Source: Haplodiscus bocki
Lineage: Eukaryota
Reading direction: 5' to 3'
DNA: 64,000 nucleotides
Assembly (NCBI GenBank): GCA_965655095.1
Contig: OZ296649.1
Coordinates: forward strand, 61,256,001 to 61,320,000
Every line of letters begins with the position of its first letter. Positions within the stretch are counted from its first letter, which is position 1. Made by a program: the position numbers and the translations under genes. The notes under the pieces are model-generated. The model was given only the letters and a program-made list of their open reading frames with translations, searched no databases and had not been told where the DNA came from. Below, in pieces: positions 7,116 through 64,000 of the stretch.

Positions 7116-7700
7116 TCAGCGGCTGTCTCGACGACTGTGATGAGTGTGTGGTTGCCGGTCAAAGCGTGTTTCTGGGACCGACAATTCACTTACCTCGTCC
7201 GGAATGTATAGCCGAGTCTCATCGCTCACATTTGGAACACGTAGTGTGTTGTTGTTTTCAGATGCGTTTTCAAAAGAGGCGTTAATCCCTACACGTTCCC
7301 CACGTTCTGAGTTTGCAGTTACACTAGTCACATCCCGTCCCGAAGATGCATTTATTGACCTGATAGCTAACTCGATTTTAGGAGCGATAATGTTATCAAT
7401 CGCGGCCAATATTGCATTTTGTATCCTGTCTTCAACTGTATCAACAATATTGTTCATTTCTCTGTCAATCCTTTCATTAAAACACCTTTCCAAAGTTTTC
7501 ACACTCATCGCATTCCCATTAACAGTTGAACTATCGTAAGAAGTACCGACGGTAAATTCCTGGTCATTGATACCTTCGTTGACCGCAACATTTTCTTGTC
7601 TTTTACTTGCGGTATTGCCGATAAACACGTCTTGCTCAAAGTCGTCTAACTGGCTAAGTAGCCTTTTGTTTGACTGTCTTTTCTTCCTAGTAGAAACCAT
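7116..7700 (-). CDS. LTR-encoded ORF, probably the N-terminus of a gag-like ORF1 (194 aa as it stands)
   Basis: Uninterrupted ORF MVSTRKKRQSNKRLL...RQPHTHH; 188 codons lie inside the LTR and the last 6 (SRRDSR) plus stop come from flanking DNA. Basic N-terminus, coiled-coil-like middle. Confidence 0.6.
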   Translation of the reverse strand: MVSTRKKRQSNKRLLSQLDDFEQDVFIGNTASKRQENVAVNEGINDQEFTVGTSYDSSTVNGNAMSVKTLERCFNERIDREMNNIVDTVEDRIQNAILAAIDNIIAPKIELAIRSINASSGRDVTSVTANSERGERVGINASFENASENNNTLRVPNVSDETRLYIPDEVSELSVPETRFDRQPHTHHSRRDSR

Positions 7701-8890
7701 GTTTGTTTAATAACTGAATTGTATTATAAGTGGGCAATTAACAAAACATGAAATCAGATGGATATTTAAATCACAAGATTAGTAAAGTTACAATAATCAC
7801 GAAAGGGAAACACCAGTTTTCGAAAAGTTTCAGCAGACTGCGTCTTGAGATCACAGTTTTTTCTTCTGATTTTTTCTCCTTTGCTCGGGTGTTACCTTAT
7901 TCTCACCTTCCTTTTGATTCGTCCACCAATAGGGTGCTGCGGACCGTTGATGTCATACTGTCGACTCTATTTATAAATAAAACATCAAAGGGTTAATCCG
8001 AATTACATGTCGTCATCGTTACATCACTCTAATAATAGAATCAAAGCGAACTTAAAAGGGGGGAATGCCGAATAAATCATGACAATCAAGTTATGGTTAT
8101 GGAAGCTGGATAAATATTCAGGGTTAAGAAAATCATGTTTACATGCGTAGTTTATATCATTAGTGGTCAATCATGGTTATAATATGGTAGATATAATAAG
8201 AATATCGATATTAAAGTTCGTGCACAGGTTTTAACTTTGATCTAAAATATGGTGGTCAAACGTGGGCTCTATGACCGTCTTTTGACCAGGTAATATTTTC
8301 ACTTGGGATTATGGTAATAAATAGCACTAAGCAATTTAATATCACGTAATTGATAATTAAGTACTTATATAAATAAGTAGCAACGTCTTTTAATTGTATA
8401 TGGTTATACATTTGCTTTTCTGACTTCATTTGGCCGTATTTCGCCTTTTGTTTAAAAGCGACCACTCGCTTTGAGCAGAGTGGTCAAAATTAGGTCCTTG
8501 TGACCGAATTTTGACCACGCTTGAGCGGCGCTTTCGCTTGGTCAGACTTTGGCAAGAATACTTGTTTTGACCAATCAAATTTAAGTATAAGACTACAGAT
8601 GAATTGAGCACTGTAAACATTTGTCTAAGACCTTTCTTTCATGATACAAGCTACTTTGATATTTGTATGGATTTTGCACTTAAATAGATAAATATTCATA
8701 GGATCATATATGTATCTATATATTAGTATATAAATATATATAAGAATATAACTTCAAAATGGTGGGGGTTTTATCCCGCGGTTTATTAAAGGGTAGTTTT
8801 ATTATATTAGTCTTCAAATAAGGGCAAAGCGTAGTCCTGTGTGACTGAGTTTTGCCCGTTACGGTTGATGGAGTATACCATGCCGTCACA
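7136..8890 (-). mobile_element. Solo LTR (~1.75 kb) of an LTR retrotransposon
   Basis: Bounded by TGTGA (7136) and TCACA (8890), the TG...CA inverted ends typical of LTRs; no internal retroelement genes adjacent; TSD not clean. Confidence 0.65.
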
Positions 8891-11244: not shown

Positions 11245-13318
11245 GTAAGTTGATTCTTGAACATTATGGAAACAACAAACAAATTGTAAGCGAGGAAACC
11301 TTCGTGCGAAGGATTTCAGTTCTTTCTACTTATTTAAAAGTATATATTTTTATGTTCGTTTTCATGGTCATAATTTCATTTGAAATATGCATTTTCTGTT
11401 GTAGATTTCCTAATAGTTTTCACCGTCGTTGATGTTTCAAAACGTTGCAAAAGCTGAGTACGGTAAACCTTTGTTTGATTTACGATGCCGGGTTTTGCGC
11501 CCAGGCTGATCATACTTGGACCAAAGTACGGCACCATACTAATCATACAAAACTTCATATATGATCTTGATAAAATCTGTCTGGGATCATATATGGTCAC
11601 GACTATGGCCAACTAAATATCATAAATGACTTTAGTATGATCAGACCGGAATCATGGAATTCTTTTCACAGGTTTCAATTTTTCAATTTAGTCACTCTGG
11701 CAGGTGATGTGACAATTCGGACCAAATACCAAATTCGGACCAGAGACAGATTCGGACCGAAGACAAATTCGGCCCAAACTTTTAATTACCTCTAATTAGT
11801 GGTAATTAGCAGCTTTTATAAAATTTTGGACGATTGTAGCTCATCATAGTAATTATCGCCAATTAGATTTGTGAATGAATACAAAAAAAATATTACACAG
11901 GCGCCTTGATCTTATAACTTCCAAAACTTTGGCATTTCGCAATGCCCTGAAATCTACCAAAAACTTCCGTTTTCCAATTTTTTTTTAAAATGCGTTAAAA
12001 ACAAATTAAAACAAGCTACCTCACGGACATTGTTTCCTTCTAGCTTTGTTAAAAGTACGTTTTGGAGGGAAAATGGATTCTGTTTTTTCATCCCATTTGG
12101 AAGATTTTCAAAAAAACAAATTGCGTCCAGAAAAAAGTTTCGAAACAATTGTACTTTAATTTTTCCGAGTTAAAGTTGCACAAATTTGCCCTGAAATTTC
12201 ACCTATTATTTAACGTTTTCCAATTTTGCCAAAATGCATTAACGACATAACCTTCGTGAGAAGTGCATTTTTGAAGAAAAAATCTACTCCGCAGAATTTT
12301 TTTACTTCTTCCCTCATAGAAAAAATAACAAAACTTGCCAGAATCGTGCCGTTGACTAGTTACGTAAGAGAATGCCTGTGATGAGTGAATTATTTTTCTT
12401 CCATGTTGAACAATAGGCGAAAAATACTAATCCTCAACATCGTCATACCCCCTTTGGAATTTCGAAAATAAATTTCTCAGAGAAACTTTATATAAGTCGC
12501 GTTATAGTTAACGCTTAAACAGATATGATATATTCCATAAATACGTGAAGTAAGCTATTAAACAGGAAATGACTAATGTTTAACAAGAAAACTGCAGACG
12601 CTATTGACTAACCTTGCAGCTAGTGGACAATAAAAAATACTATGCTGTATAAAAGAAAGCTGAAGGATTGGAATTGCACAAAAGGAAAGAAAAGGAAAAT
12701 TTCTAAACGCGTTAGAATGTGGTTCAACGCGATTGGATCAATATTCAAATTTAGCCATGCACCATGGTTGCATGATCACGTGGTACGATAGCGAGTATAA
12801 AAACCCCGTACAATCTCATTTCTCAGAGATTTTATCCACCGTCAACTAGCCATTTCCCCGAGGCGAAACTCTCTTCCACTTTCCTCTCATCATAATTCTG
12901 GAATTCAATCCTATTTCCAAAATTATTCTACGACAATCTCAAAATTTGTCTGAGCCAAATTTACTCATCCCCTCGACAAAATTATTCTAAGACAGTTTCA
13001 AAATTTGTCTTAGCCACAAATTCTGCAGAGCCGACCTACTCGCTCTCAGTTTCTCACCAAATGATCCTATTGGCTCTCGCTCAGCACGTGACCAAACGAG
13101 TATAAATACCCATTGCACAGCCATAATATTCACTCGCTTGCTACCGTCAACTACCCTACTTCCCCGACGCGAAACTCTCTTCCACCTTCCTCCCATCAAT
13201 ATTCTGGAAATATTCAAAGACTTTCCATCGACCACCCGGAAATATTCAAAGACTTTTTCGCCTGCAGAATTGTCTTAGCCGCAAATCACCAATATCCCGG
13301 AATTATTCAAAGACTTTC

Positions 13319-13580
13319 CCAGCAGCAGCAACCGGCAGCAGCAACCCGCAGCAGGAACCAGCAGCAGCAACCAGCTACAGCAATCAGCAGCAGCAACCAG
13401 CTACAGCAATCAGCAGCAGCAACCAGCAGCAGCAACCCGCAGAAGCAACCCGCAGAAACAACCAGCAGCAGCAAACAACTACAGCAATCAGCAGTAGCAA
13501 CCAGCAGCAGCGGTCAACAGCAGCAATCAACAGCAGCAACCGGCATCAGCAATCAGCCTTCATCCTACCAGCAGCACCTA
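13319..13580 (+). repeat. Degenerate CAG/CAA-rich minisatellite
   Basis: Repeated CAGCAGCAACCAG / CAGCAATCAG units; produces the low-complexity ORF 13113-13649. Confidence 0.85.
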
Positions 13581-14341
13581 CACAATCAACGCCGACCTCC
13601 CTTAGTTATCACTACGGTTCCAAGCAGAGAATATCCCGCTAGCAGTTGACCTAGGACTAGCTGCCCGGTAGCAGAGTGTAATCACCGCACCGAGGCTCAT
13701 TTTTGTTACTTTTCCATTTTTCTAAAAATCTCTGTTTGTGATTTTTTCTCTTTTTTGCTAAGACTTAATTTTAATTTTTAATTGGTAAAAGTAAAACACA
13801 TATTATTCACGACCAGTTGACAGTCCTTATGACTTATGTCCTGGTCGCCGATAAAAGAGAATAAAATTCATTGCTGGTGTCCTGTGAGACCGGACTGTTA
13901 ATCGGCAGGTGACAAAAACCCAGCTTAAGGTTACGACCGGACTAGTGGAATATCCATACGGTGGTCATTTTTTATACTAAAATTAGTGTAAAATGCATGT
14001 AATGTAAAATGCATGTAATTTGAACCCCGTTTCCCTACAGTCTGGCCTATCCAACCTGGGACTAAAACAGGAGCTAGTTTTTTTGACCCGTCAGCCTAGT
14101 AATCTAGAGACAGACGTGGTAAAGCTAAATGTAAAACAAACTTTAAAATGACGGGCTAAAAAAGCCGACTAGATGAGACGGGACTTGTTCGTCACCCGCA
14201 TTAGTCAAAAAGTAAAATGGTGTATGTTTATCCTATTCGCTCTATTCACAGATTTCCAGTTTCAACAGCAGCTATTGTGGATGTGGATCGGCGTTAAATT
14301 TGATGTCTTAGAAGTTTGATTTATAATTTTAAAATTTATTG

Positions 14342-14588: not shown

Positions 14589-15713
14589 AGTTAATTACAT
14601 TTTCAATCCTAAAGTGAGTTTACTTTGATGTTAATCAAATTTCATAATATGTGTGGCATCCACTTTTTAACCCCTTTTTCAATCTTCTGACTTCTTGCTG
14701 CATAAATCGTTGCCCTTTCACTAAGTTCATGGGTTAAATTTAAATAAAAGTTGAAGACTGAGCTGCTAAAAATTCCCAAATTGTTATATTAAAGTTGATA
14801 AAAATTAAAAGAGAGGAAGTAGAATATATGTGATGTAACTGTATTTCGTAAAATTTTAGACCATGTGGTGATTTTCCCTGTGCTATCCGACGTTTAAAGC
14901 TGAGTAATTTCCCTTTACGTACGTGCAGTCATTTCCATTTCAGCAATATAACTTATTGAAATACTTTCGCTAATAATTTAACTTTTCTTTGTACCATCCT
15001 CCACTATAGCTCGAAAGTCCTTGCTTGAATTCACGCAATTTTTGTTCGCTGAGCCTGCAAGGCGACGGAATAGAGAGATAAGAGCTCTAGAGACTCGTTT
15101 TGGTTATTAACGAAATAATTGAAGTGCGATGGCATCTTCCTGAGTGGTGCCTGGTCACGCACCATTTTAAGCCAGAAAGAAATTAGAACCAAATAATATT
15201 ACCAATTTAAACCTCTATCTCTCCTTTTCTAACTACCATGCTCTGCGACTTATAACACAAAAAATCCACCACAAGTCTTTTTAGATTTACGGGCAGGACC
15301 GATTTTGGCCTTTCTCAGTTTGTTGCTTCAAAAGTTATTCGAGTTCAAGTTTTTGGGATATTTTTTGAGATATCTAGCGCCGCCAAAGAACAAAGTTAAT
15401 GCCCCCCGGTTAATTTATATCAGAACTGGTTGCAAAATTGGTATACTTTCAGAAAATAAATTGAGTTAAGCTTATATACTAATTAAGTAATTAGGTTAAT
15501 TAGGGAAATAATTTGGGCCGAATTTCAAAATTGGGTCCGAATTTGTCTATGGTCCGAATTTACGTAGAACCACTCTGGCAATATATTGAAAATAGAAAAT
15601 AAGGCACTCTCACTAAGAAGACATACTCCTCGTTGCTCACAAATCTCAAGGGAATGTCCCTGTGACTTTTCCTAAAGCTTCACCATAGCTCGTGAAATTC
15701 GGACTTTTTCCAG

Positions 15714-47333: not shown

Positions 47334-48556
47334 TTGAACAAAAAGAGTTGAAAAATTTTGTCTGAAAAAAAAAGAAAAACGACCTCACTGAATGAATAAT
47401 TTTTCTTACATATTTAAAAGTATGTGGCGAAAAGTAACAATTTAAAAAAACGCCCACAGAACGCCTTTAGATCTCCTGAATGCTGTGGTTTTCTCTGAGT
47501 CATTTTTTTCATTTTTTTGCTGTTCTGAGGAAAAATCCAGTTTGGATGAGGACACGCCTCGTTTTTCTGTCTTAAAACAAGTAAAATGTCTTTTTCGAAT
47601 GAAACTCTTGCCAACATTCTTAGGCATAACTCTATAAAAAAAACTGATGTCGACCAATCATGGCTCTAATCAAGTAGTAGCATATAAGTGGTAGTATCAG
47701 GTAATATATAGCGAAATCAGATCGAACTTTCAGCTTATCGTACTAGATTCTGACTAGCAGCTAACACTAACCAAACTCCTCTGTGGTATCTCTTCGCAGA
47801 ACAGTCAGATTGTTGTTGTTTGACCCAGCCCAACTGTTCGGTAGCTCATCAGTGATATAATCCCAAAAAATTGTAAAGATTTTTGATAGGAATCAGGCTG
47901 CCTAGCTATGTCCAACCGTTCAGTTGTTGATGTGGCCGCCGTCTTGTTCACCGTCCCCAGTGTGTGTGTTTGCTTTAGACAACCACCTACACATTAGTCA
48001 TACTACCGTGCTATCTTTCAAATATGTTTTCCGAGCGGTTTTTTGCTCTTGCATCCTATAGACGAGAATATAATGTGCCTTCAAAATGCTTTGGTACCAG
48101 AAATTGTTACCATTACCGTTTTATTGTTTCCGCATCAACTGTTCAATTGAAATATTTCTTTTTGTCAAACACTGCAATATTTCATTGAAAGAAATATTTT
48201 CAGAGTAAAATATAGCCGAATTATAAAACTATTAGTGCAATCGAAATCTTTCACTCTAGACGTTCCTGGGATGCTTTTTGTTTAGAGTTTTTTTCACGAT
48301 TATTTTTTCAAGCAGCGTCCAAGGAACACAAATTTTTTCAATTTTCCGGGTCTGAAACCGCATACATACTTTCTGCTACCGAATAAAAGTTACCACGCAA
48401 ATGCAGTGGGTAATATTGGGGTGACATTTGGATGAGAACTACTTTCAGAGATTGAACCCAATCAAATATGCATGAAACGAACATGTACACGCAAAACAAG
48501 GTTCGGTGATTTTTTATTATTATCGCGTTACACATAACGCTCGAACGGTAATTAAT

Positions 48557-60099: not shown

Positions 60100-61743
60100 T
60101 TACTAATTTACAACCTAATCAAAGTTTTTTTCAAGAAAAAACTATCCTAGTGATATAATAACAATTTATAAAGATTACATACTCGAAGAGCAATGAAATA
60201 ACAGTTGGCTTCGTTTTCAGATTTGCTATGACTCGATGTATGTCAAAATTGGCGGACAAATAAAAGTAAGGAAAAAAATCGAACTGACGTTCGATTCAAC
60301 GACCATTCTATTGCATATTGAAACTGAAACAGGGAAAGAAGCGGTGTATAAATGCCCTTCTGAGTCACCTAACTATTATCAATTGCGCAGACTCCTTTCA
60401 TCAGATTTCTATTTTCCTGGCGACATCGTTTGTGGAAACGGAAATTTCAATATCCAGATGACACTTACTCTTCTGAATATTGACAATCAACACTAAATAA
60501 TTGTGAGCATCTTCTTCAACAACATCACTAATGATTATAGAGTGATTACGGAATCAACCAACGATGAACAAAAACAGCTTTCATTTGTACTCCTGGGTCA
60601 TAACATTATTCGTTCATTGAAGCTCTTTCCAAGAACTCACTTCCAGTGTTGATCAAGAGCCAAGACGGAAAGTTTTAGATCACAATTTTTTTCCTCGAGA
60701 AAAACGACGAAATCTACACTTCCGAAGAGCTTAACGCACAACATTACAACTAAAAGTTACAAAATCGACACGGAAAAACACAAAAATTGGGGAAAAGCTA
60801 CTTTTTCTTGTCCTCCAGAATCTGCAAACTTTGTTTTTATTGAAACTTTCTGCAAGAATCCTCCTCCAACGAAAATTGTGAGCATGTACCAAAGGATTTG
60901 ATTAATTGACACCTCACTGAAAGAACCCAATAGAAATTACCTTAAATCGATCTGGTGACAACAAGACGCATCTGAGAGCTGACATTCGCTGCAAGTGGAC
61001 ACCACTTTCTCCGCAAGGAGAACACTTCATAACTACGATTTTCTGGATACCGGACGGAAGTCCTTTACAAGTCAGATTGCGGGTTACTGAGAATCTACTC
61101 GCGATAATACTTATTCCCATAACAGTCCGAACAGAAGAGTTCGCCAACCTCTTTGTGACTCTCAAAATTTCCAGGACGCTGGATAAGAGGGAAAACTACT
61201 GCTTGGACGATCTTCTGGATTATATGGACAAGAACCTGCTGAGATTTAAGGAGATGTCACACGTCAATGTTCTGCACGCTCTTGTTGACATTTGAACTTA
61301 ACGTCAAGTGCCTCTGGCCGCACCTTGCTACGATTAATCACTTGGAGATCACAAAGATCGAGTGGAGCCAAGTATCTGACCCAATTGTTATAACAGTCCA
61401 CAGTTTGGGGCAACTGCAACCTGGCAAGTGGAAAATTCCCATTAAACCGGGGACTGAAGTGTTAAAAAATCTACGCTTTGCCCTACAAGATTTCACGAAA
61501 CTTCCGCTTTTCAAAAACACTCATGCTCTGACCAGACACTTAGTCAAAGAACTCATTCGTCAGTGTCAATCTTCAGTCTCTGACGACCAGGCCACGAGAC
61601 CAAAACGAAACAAAACAAACTACAACTACACTCTTTCAATGGTCCAGGGGAGTTCTCTTCAAATTTTGATTTGGCACTTTTTTGGTGATACCCGTTCTAT
61701 TCCAGCACCCTTTATAAAACTCTTGACGTCGTTGTATTATTAG
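60100..61743 (+). pseudogene. Accessory ORF C (~500 aa, frameshifted), unknown function
   Basis: Protein-like fragments 60236-60496, 60740-61295 and 61267-61743 on the same strand. Confidence 0.55.
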
Positions 61744-61931
61744 TGAAGCTACTACTACAAAATTTTAGCTCCCACTTTGTGTTAGTGCCCACAAAGCGCC
61801 TGTTTGATTTTAAGGCATTTTTCAAAAGCTGTTCCCCTGAAAAAATAGAGTGAACTTCCACTGGAAAACCCCCCAAGACGCTATTTTTCTATGCTTCTAA
61901 TAGTTAATCCCTCTGAAGCAAACTTCCAGAG

Positions 61932-63814
61932 ATGGAAATTCCGCTGAAAAGCCCAGCGAAGACGCTATTTCTTTTTCAAATCCTCGTGTTTTATTCCGAG
62001 GTTGGTTACACTTTAGTTCCAGTTGCAGACCAGGTTGCCAAGAAATTTAAAGTGTCTCATTTTGACTGCGGCGCAATGACTGAAAACACTCTCTATGCTC
62101 TCAACCAGGTACGACAATGCCACATTACACCGGAGCAATTGGAAATTAGCCAAATGAAAATCATTCTCTAAACTAAGCATTTCCGGAAAGAACTTAACGC
62201 AACAAAATGTCGAATACAACATCCACGCGAGAAGTGGCACTGTGGACATAACGACCACAGCAGTAATGACCACACATTAGCCGGAATCACTAGCGACCTA
62301 GTGATCTCACCAGAACAATGCCGATCGCTTGCAAAGAGAAAAATGATCTATTTGGCTGATCAATTTTTGGGAGTTGAGTATGATACAAAGAATCCTATTG
62401 TAATCACAGACGGTTCACGAGCGATACTAATAGAAGTCACTGCACGGCACGTGGTTGGATTACCTGTGATACTTTCCTGCTTCATATGCACCGGACAATA
62501 CCAAAATCAGAATTTCAACTGGGAAAGTCCTATCCGACTAAGCTCAAGTACTGCAATGTGCACTGGAAGAGTTAGGTTGTGAGCCAACTTCATTGAACCC
62601 CTACGCCTACATATGGGACTACCCTGATAACTGTGTTTTATCGGTCCTCCGAACTGAAGAAGTTAACATGGTGAAACAAGGAACAAAATATTATATAATC
62701 AGTGGACCTGATTCAACAACAATGTTTGTCTTCGAAGTTAAAAACAATCCCCAAAAACATTGTGGAAAGCGGACAGATAGTTATGTGACTAATTACGATT
62801 CACTCTATGTAGCAACCATCAGTGGAGCTTTTGACCTGAGATCTGGACTGAATCTTGGCAAGGAACGGAATGGTGTCACTCAACTCCTACAGTACATAGC
62901 ACCCACTCAAAACAACGGATTTGCCCAACTCTATGCATACGACCCAAAAGACACGTCCCACCAGTCAAGCCATGAAAATATGTACCTGAATATGGACTAA
63001 GAAATGCACAGGGGAACAAAATTGGGTTACATCTTTTTCCAGAGCTCACGATTACTTCAAGCTTCTGAGATACAACTCTTGAAAAATCAATGTGAGTAAG
63101 AACGAACACAAATCCTCACTTTTCTGATGCTATCTCTCGAAAACCCACGGTTCGCAGGCTATATGCTCACCGGGAACCGTTCGATGTTTCTGGAAACTGA
63201 TGGCAGCTTAGCCTCTTCGTATCATTGCCCACTAGTTCTTTCACCACTTCATACAATGACCGAATGTTACGACCGGATCACGATACTCCTGCAATGCTTT
63301 GAAAAAGTTCTCGCAGAAACTCAATGTCTTTTCAAACAACAACAAGAATCCAGACAGTTTTCCTTATTATGCTCCTCGAACAGACTTCTATGTGGACAAC
63401 ATAATCTTACCCGGCTACTTCAAAGATCGGTTCTTGGACACATTTGGACCAGTTGCATACGTTCTTGAACACTGCGGAATCTATTTCCCCATGTTTTTTT
63501 TCAAACTTATAATAGATGTTGTGGTTATGGTAATACGCCACTTGGAAATAGCTAAAATGACTGGCGCGTCACCCGGATTAGGTAAGACCCTTCTAAGCGC
63601 CTCATATAATATTTTTCTCATGTCAGTTCTGAATTCAATGTATGATCCACGCGCGCCTACTCTCGCCAAGGTAGAAGAAGAGAAAAAAACTCTCTGTACT
63701 GAGGAAGAGTTACATGTTATGAGAGATGATACTAAGAAAAAGGAAGAGCAATTTTATCCAGTCATGAGTCCGGCTCAGGTTAACCAAGCCGTGACTCCAA
63801 TTTCCCCTGTTTAA
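61932..63814 (+). pseudogene. env: env-like glycoprotein of chuvirus / herpesvirus gB (class III) type
   Basis: Signal peptide; FDCG...YALNQVRQC...KCRIQ..REKWHCGH.DHSS...ISPEQCRSL cysteine pattern; C-terminal TM (CGIYFPMFFFKLIIDVVVMVI); apparent internal deletion near 63290. Confidence 0.8.
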
Positions 63815-64000
63815 AATTGTTTTATTTCTTTTTCTAGGCCGCATTACACTCAATCTTTCCTCACTGTGACGATTGCCTTTCAGTCCTTTCGGACCCACAA
63901 GAAGACTTCCAGCCCCTTAATCCTTCTGGTTTGGAATTCCCCACTAACTCTGTCGTCACTTTCCTATCTCCTATCTCCTCTCCTTCGAAGAAAACCTCCT

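Follow-up and report, generated by a model that had tools for sequence, protein, structure and literature searches.

Organization of the element at the locus

At the locus lies a ~20-kb element of the Ty3/gypsy class, three sister copies of which span 19.5-20.4 kb; it begins within the window, that is the whole 64-kb stretch of DNA that was analysed, and runs past its end (Table 1). Downstream of gag and pol, after ~3.3 kb with several intervening ORFs, env follows as a separate ORF. The preliminary description had taken this gene for the env of a Gypsy element, and so it proved: it is bounded by LTRs and has gag and a gypsy-type pol upstream, the Pfam matches of the element being RVT_1, RT_RNaseH, RT_RNaseH_2, Integrase_H2C2, rve, Integrase_p58_C, SH3_Tf2-1 and Retrotrans_gag. 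In the sisters the C-terminus of the integrase is p58/SH3-like. None of the Pfam families that we take to be of the Pao type was listed at E <= 1 in the element, families that we take to be of the gypsy type being matched instead.

Table 1. Features of the element within the window (positions are those of the window)
Feature	Positions	Strand	Remarks
5' LTR (~2.4 kb)	48521..50942	+	Small deletion at 3' end
Primer-binding site (PBS)	50943..50959	+	Complements 3' end of a host tRNA-like sequence, anticodon CAU (Met)
ORF0, ~113-aa accessory gene	51346..51681	+	After PBS, before gag; dN/dS 0.09; probable paralog of orfB and orfC
gag, broken	51688..53139	+	Retrotrans_gag; tblastn with sister gag
pol, broken	53109..58622	+	Protease - macrodomain - RT - RNase H - integrase (H2C2, rve)
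TARG1/OARD1-type macrodomain inside Pol	54053..54466	+	Sister frame matches human TARG1/OARD1 (PDB 4j5q, E 7e-27); dN/dS 0.11
orfA, ~140-aa accessory ORF	58719..59159	+	Broken in window; no family match; dN/dS 0.06
orfB, ~127-aa accessory ORF	60924..61292	+	dN/dS 0.27
orfC, ~114-aa accessory ORF	61285..61626	+	dN/dS 0.19
Candidate splice acceptor (pyrimidine tract + TAG)	61881..61903	+	28 nt before env ATG; use putative
env pseudogene, class III (gB/chuvirus-G-like) family	61932..63814	+	Three stops, frame changes, ~290-nt deletion near 63288
orfD start	63838..64000	+	~200-aa frame, without Met in the sister examined; runs beyond window

In insects, solo insertions of chuvirus glycoproteins with Gypsy fragments on either side have been described (in the available text of PMC10084718), which would suit the view that a glycoprotein gene endogenised from an RNA virus, or a host gene that had been domesticated, came to stand beside a Gypsy element by chance. 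Here, however, env lies inside the LTRs of a single element and occupies the same place between them in every sister examined in full. A DNA search of the 1.5-Gb animal-type assembly yielded 2677 candidates, and the 40 scored comprised the window copy and 39 further copies at 84-87% identity; moreover, the window copy is itself broken. Such an LTR-bounded, multi-copy arrangement refutes chance adjacency, which we regard as scarcely credible.

The 5' LTR in the window and the partial 3' LTR beyond it are 93.4% identical over 1256 bp (K2P 0.068), as against K2P values of 0.004-0.005 for the LTRs of the sisters, which measure 2.1-2.6 kb, start with TATC and end with GACA; this makes the window copy roughly 15 times older than those sisters. 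A 4-bp target-site duplication is exact in all three sisters with both ends read; in the window copy, three of the four bases agree. The LTR termini are TA..CA instead of TG..CA, both at window position 48521 and in the sisters, with internal ends AGT|TATC and GACA|AAC|TGG. Identity with Troyka was considered and rejected, as the 3-bp duplication and CG..CG termini given for that element in the available text of PMC12440569 do not fit. The tRNA pattern complementary to the PBS had 9 genomic matches, versus 2 for a control pattern, and at the 4 loci scanned the Rfam tRNA model matched one and ARAGORN none.

Starting ~430 nt past the window end, an ~18-kb Polinton-like insertion splits orfD from the TRAF ORF (see below) and the partial 3' LTR. 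This Polinton/Maverick-like insertion in orfD (L021:1432 to L053:1626) has terminal inverted repeats and a 6-bp duplication, along with weak rve, adenoviral-protease and A32-ATPase matches, all under the curated cut-offs. Elsewhere in the window, this clade has left LTR-like remnants at 12850-13600 and 14970-15250, which contain a 13-nt tandem array, and a 196-aa frame on the minus strand at 7116-7706, perhaps acoel-like, resembles the start of another repeat element.

A decayed copy of env

The env copy opens with an ATG at 61932 and closes with a stop codon at 63812-63814. The cysteine pattern FDC..RQC..TKC..KWHCGHNDHSS..PEQC can be read in it, with a hydrophobic leader at its start and a hydrophobic stretch at its C-terminus, and the TAG of the candidate acceptor occupies 61901-61903; the signal peptide, cysteine spacing, C-terminal TM and upstream acceptor-like tract of the preliminary description were all found where it had placed them. 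Tracts of the latter kind, in which 14-17 of 17 nt are pyrimidines and aaTAG or taTAG follows, occur at 18 of 20 loci, among them that of the window. Three runs of contigs of unrecorded type contained no joint informative on this acceptor, which speaks neither for nor against its use. A profile of the env family built from 25 relatives matched seven separate frame pieces of the copy, in order (E 3e-73 to 1e-5), with no other match in the 64-kb window and none in the reversed window, so that these features go beyond chance.

The interval had also been presented as an env gene, and in this respect the claim needs amendment: the gene is real and its features are present, but its frame is interrupted. 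In-frame stops stand at 62169-62171, 62998-63000 and 63097-63099, the frame changes near 62420 and 62500-62530, and near 63288 a ~290-nt deletion is accompanied by an additional frame change; the deletion-bearing copy covers 634 of the 726 residues of a sister frame. Because of these stops, frame changes and the deletion, the window env is a pseudogene, a dead copy that cannot encode a working protein.

The env family

Five families of the element were compared, namely that of the window (W), three others of the same genome (B, C and D), and E, which is element L073 of another assembly. In searches and folding, a naturally uninterrupted sister frame of 726 aa (P0001), 83-84% identical to the main pieces of the window env, was used as a stand-in for the latter. 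Among the 19 sisters closest to the window copy, only one keeps its env frame uninterrupted, the other 18 having stops or frame changes, which counts against the explanation proposed below; uninterrupted frames exist both in the window's family and in its relatives. A search of the genome with the Pfam family PF24664 (Monjiviricetes_fusion) returned 4114 candidates, with 121 matches among the 68 scored, many of them 721-aa frames that are stop-free within the match. A 721-aa env frame of this kind, stop-free within the match in many copies, is found in family C (L067-L069 and others); one family-C copy has 1809-bp LTRs without a mismatch, which marks it as a very recent insertion.

The preliminary description had assigned env to the class III (gB/chuvirus-like) family, and both Pfam and the predicted fold described below uphold this. 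P0001 scores 101.9 bits against PF24664 (curated cut-off 27) and the related families 136-168 bits, while a single piece of the window env reaches 18.1 bits, under the cut-off. PF24664 was the sole Pfam match in all 23 relatives scanned. A word-indexed search recovered 206 relatives of P0001, those listed being all unnamed, and a profile search gave 1904 representatives at E <= 0.001. Sequence searches of the PDB gave no match with the sister protein and two chance-level matches with the profile, and no gB was found; hence, the link to gB rests on Pfam and on predicted folds.

The sister frame has the layout of a type I membrane glycoprotein, with a leader, an ectodomain and one C-terminal TM helix; hydropathy peaks at residues 7-30 and 609-639, and there are four sequons. 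Fourteen cysteines are kept in 84-97% of the covering alignment rows, a YPx-hydrophobic motif is present in the env tail of most relatives, and no furin motif was found in the env alignment. Purifying selection acts on env among the sisters, four pairs of which gave dN/dS values of 0.06, 0.08, 0.18 and 0.25.

Predicted structure of Env

The AlphaFold2 model of P0001 (139 alignment rows, pLDDT 78, pTM 0.53) has helices at residues 8-28 and 605-646 and, as a monomer, a 46-residue helix at 357-402. Its predicted layout is gB-like, with a fusion module nested in a PH-like domain, a long central helix, a crown, one TM helix and a short tail; the β-rich fusion domain inside the PH-like domain, the central helix and the crown are all present in the predicted models, at modest Z scores. 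The structural check that the preliminary description had proposed turned out in its favour. In a Foldseek search of the PDB with this model all listed rows were herpes gB (best E 6e-14, TM ~0.25), and superposition on herpes gB with VIA gave Z 12.0 with an rmsd of 17.2 over 444 aligned residues. In the BFVD the top rows were chu-, xinmo- and qin-like glycoproteins (E 3e-33 to 3e-28), the 50 rows listed being 9-16% identical to P0001.

When modelled alone, the fusion module (residues 62-345) attained a pLDDT of 88.9 and a pTM of 0.73. A class I/II or non-fusogen fold had been named beforehand as the outcome that would speak against a class III protein; instead, in a comparison of this module with 48,161 chains made without Foldseek, ranks 1-11 were all class III fusogens (gB, rabies G, Chandipura G, and Bourbon and Thogoto GP; Z 8.3-5.0), while GP64 came 13th and most of the remaining rows were PH-fold domains. 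The BFVD results agree with this ranking. The best superposition of the module in the wide search (Z 8.3) has an rmsd of 10.7 over 228 residues, and those of the full model are loose (TM 0.25-0.45, rmsd mostly > 12 A). Thus, the superpositions are loose and prediction-based, yet the ranking as class III is consistent.

The two loops at the expected fusion-loop sites, which were placed from the secondary structure, are mostly polar: in the window's family loop 1 has H-N-D-H at its tip, and nowhere in positions 160-170 of the alignment does the share of hydrophobic residues exceed 28%. This bears on the entry of gB-type errantiviruses, the mechanism of which is stated to be unknown in the available text of Chary & Hayashi (PMC13524379), where it is also noted that HSV gB requires gD/gH/gL. 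Both points lend some weight to a reading in which the class III fold has been kept by a protein that is not a self-sufficient fusogen, and which has its role in budding, in attachment or in receptor interference, or else depends on a partner. We think this improbable, given that the whole ectodomain, the 14 cysteines, the TM and the tail are under purifying selection in recently inserted elements, and that 39% of relatives have a hydrophobic residue at loop position 106. We accordingly retain a predicted class III fusogen as the preferred reading of the unbroken Env.

Accessory genes and the TRAF ORF

The element carries additional cargo in the form of the macrodomain, the small ORFs and a TRAF ORF, and this cargo is under selection. 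From one pair each, dN/dS is 0.10 for the MATH domain of TRAF and 0.44 for the N-terminal part of TRAF; the macrodomain has a value of 0.11, and those of four small ORFs span 0.06-0.27. ORF0, orfB and orfC (~110-130 aa) have in common the pattern C-x-W...I....W; they are linked via a family-C ORF (z 29, 9.1 and 5.0), the direct pairs being weak (z 1.1-3.1). A search of the ESM Atlas with orfB gave no usable match.

The TRAF ORF follows env at L053:1664-2776, ~18.7 kb beyond the window end, and is found in sisters at L043:2895-4235 and L049:5882-7279. Its ~447 aa comprise a coiled-coil-like part and a TRAF-C/MATH domain, with no RING and no zinc fingers, and its N-terminus presumably starts with a PAM2-like motif; in the window copy it is cut inside the MATH domain. 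The best matches in the PDB are TRAF4-like (E 2e-13 to 3e-12). A genome-wide search for TRAF domains gave 2967 candidates, of which 150 were scored, and 25 of the 30 fetched adjoin env or orfD. Two further frames (L075:1519-2715 and L076:1504-2682) are probable host TRAF exons, with AG before the frame and GT at the same late-MATH codon. The MATH domains of these exons and of the element ORFs are 35-38% identical, and one coiled-coil segment of the host TRAF matches family B (z 4.9, 1 of 500 shuffles) and not family W. As the element ORF reads through the position of the host intron, its shortened TRAF is likely to derive from a captured, spliced host mRNA. The product may act as a decoy or an adaptor.

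TRAF-binding motifs have the consensus (P/S/A/T)x(Q/E)E. Binding of the element TRAF to the tail of its own Env was considered and rejected, because this motif occurs in some family-W tails and in family D, which has no TRAF, and is absent in the TRAF-bearing families B and C.

History of env within the clade

Family E is represented by a 13-kb contig with gag-pol-env. Identity to family W in env is ~73% for B, ~57% for C, ~41% for D and ~40% for E; the corresponding values are ~82%, ~53%, ~39% and ~38% in gag, and ~94%, ~81%, ~61% and ~75% in RT. Across seven elements the pairwise identities rank together (Spearman 0.85 for gag-env and 0.80 for RT-env, these pairs not being independent), and the trees of env and of gag agree in how they arrange families B, C, D and E. 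The RT tree disagrees for family D, which it puts on a very long branch among near-identical family-W copies, and in view of this misplacement the congruence of env and RT is one of rank, not of topology.

The co-divergence of env, gag and RT over five families indicates that env has been in the clade since before the families split, and a search for relatives of env on viral contigs gave 162 pattern matches, none of which was confirmed. Both results count against the idea, put forward in the preliminary description, of a capture special to this Gypsy lineage. On these sequence comparisons such a lineage-specific capture is disfavoured, and env would have been inherited with gag-pol rather than captured by the window's family.

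The same evidence also touches on an older event, in which the ancestor of the clade captured a chu- or mononega-like viral glycoprotein independently of other gB-type errantiviruses. The best structural neighbours of Env are indeed RNA-virus glycoproteins rather than herpes gB, neither three short motifs of the family nor its PBS string turned up in the searched supplements of PMC13524379, which hold part of the sequences, and a separate capture by Pao elements is described in the available text of Dezordi et al. (PMC7642597). Nevertheless, the viral proteins are 10-17% identical, as opposed to 39-42% between the most distant Gypsy families here, the viral contigs yielded nothing confirmed, and Chary & Hayashi argue, in the available text of PMC13524379, for an ancient acquisition of env with rare exchange. 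We therefore rate a separate ancestral capture as rather unlikely, and prefer long inheritance of env together with gag-pol.

The accessory genes are distributed differently. In families W, B and C the macrodomain lies within Pol, after the protease and before RT; in D it stands at the end of Gag, and E has none. Besides the window copy, a macrodomain is located at L062:4110-4529. The TRAF ORF is found in W, B and C only (three of the five families). On a short metagenome contig (L074), matches to env, orfD and the TRAF ORF occur together. The family is hence more informative than the single copy: env travels with gag-pol over five families, and accessory genes come and go.

Proposed explanation and significance

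In our judgement, the locus very likely holds the broken env of a ~20-kb Ty3/gypsy element, the unbroken members of which encode a predicted class III fusogen that was inherited of old within the clade along with gag-pol, and which likely serves the passage of particles from cell to cell. The env product would be made from a spliced message with its acceptor at 61903. Guided by its leader into the secretory route, the product would be glycosylated at the four sequons, form seven disulfides from the 14 conserved cysteines, trimerise without furin cleavage and be sorted through the conserved YPx-hydrophobic motif of its tail. After uptake it would fuse membranes, perhaps on acidification, given the histidine-rich loop, and would let Gag-Pol particles pass between host cells, as is described for the errantiviruses of Drosophila in the available text of PMC13524379. 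Whereas env would have come down with gag-pol from an old ancestor of the clade, and not through capture by the window's family, the macrodomain, the small ORFs and the TRAF ORF are likely to have been acquired at different times in the history of the clade, and they probably counter host defences.

A bolder extension, which we put forward tentatively as a possibility, is that the clade is a complex and still spreading invertebrate retrovirus with a counter-defence kit assembled around an ancient gB-type env. This kit might include a TARG1-like ADP-ribose eraser, packaged together with Pol or Gag, and the three small proteins that arose by duplication. Its remaining part might be a TRAF without RING, derived from a host mRNA after splicing and by now among up to ~3,000 TRAF-domain candidates in the genome, which could act as a dominant-negative brake on TNF-receptor/innate signalling in the cells that release or receive particles. 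If the TRAF and macrodomain proteins do blunt host signalling and ADP-ribosylation, the element would offer a tractable parallel to complex retroviruses and their accessory genes, and its cargo would point to anti-retroelement defences in an invertebrate.

Comparison with known systems

The pairing of Gypsy elements with a gB-type env, including chuvirus-like forms, is already published. HSV/gB-type env genes across metazoan Gypsy elements ('ancient errantiviruses') are described by Chary & Hayashi (eLife 2026, PMC13524379), who found 114 Gypsy elements with a chuvirus-like BEL/Pao glycoprotein as bait; for non-insect genomes the first prefilter given in the available text of that paper set an upper limit of 1 kb between pol and env, and its later steps reached 3-5 kb downstream. 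A bridge formed by RNase H plus a 'mini' domain is also described there for the ancient errantiviruses. The present case is in this respect one further example of a published kind, and the window copy a fossil, which, being broken in gag, pol and env, falls outside the intact-ORF inclusion rule set out there. As far as the available text of that study goes, the element has in common with the ancient errantiviruses a Ty3/gypsy pol, the order gag-pol-env, LTRs and a tRNA PBS, a gB-like ectodomain between leader and TM with cysteine bridges and a dispensable furin site, the divergence of env along with pol, and a recent multi-copy expansion. It differs from the forms described there in its length of ~20 kb, in the ~3.3 kb with several ORFs between pol and env, and in the possession of a macrodomain, small paralogous ORFs and a TRAF ORF. 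The string 'macro' does not occur in the main text of PMC13524379, and its matches shown in the supplements are species names or sequence strings; six acoel-related names are absent from seven supplements, and three from the main text. In the mainly open-access literature covered, we found no publication of a macrodomain in a gypsy element or of the present gene order.

The Anakin BEL/Pao elements of mosquitoes, as described in the available text of Dezordi et al. 2020 (PMC7642597), where nematode captures are also cited, resemble the element in being LTR retroelements with a chuvirus-like glycoprotein downstream of pol. In contrast to Anakin, the Pfam matches here are of the Ty3/gypsy type and the glycoprotein is without a close viral relative. 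No clear capture by Gypsy is reported for insects in the available text of Dezordi et al. 2023 (PMC10084718). With regard to the class III fusogens themselves (gB, PDB 2gum and 6vn1; rhabdovirus G; thogotovirus GP; GP64; chuvirus G, PF24664), Env is similar in its predicted layout, nesting, long central helix and type I topology; it is unlike them in being 7-17% identical and in the polar tips of its predicted fusion loops.

In its cargo the element can be set beside the planarian giants Burro/GYPSM1, which have an env like mononegaviral fusion glycoproteins together with MATH/TRAF-C (Arkhipova & Yushenova 2019, in the available text of PMC6431247). Unlike Burro, the element gave no match to BIR, BCL2, ankyrin or dUTPase, and has a TARG1-like macrodomain instead. 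The env of Burro is in frame between gag and pol, whereas here it is a separate ORF after pol; likewise, TRAF here is an ORF of its own after env, lacking RING and zinc fingers, and in Burro it resides in the polyprotein or in an accessory ORF. Both are nonetheless giant gypsy-like elements that combine a mononegaviral-like env with TRAF/MATH. What is less ordinary about the present element is thus its extra cargo, including the shortened TRAF gene, which makes it a large, cargo-rich form.
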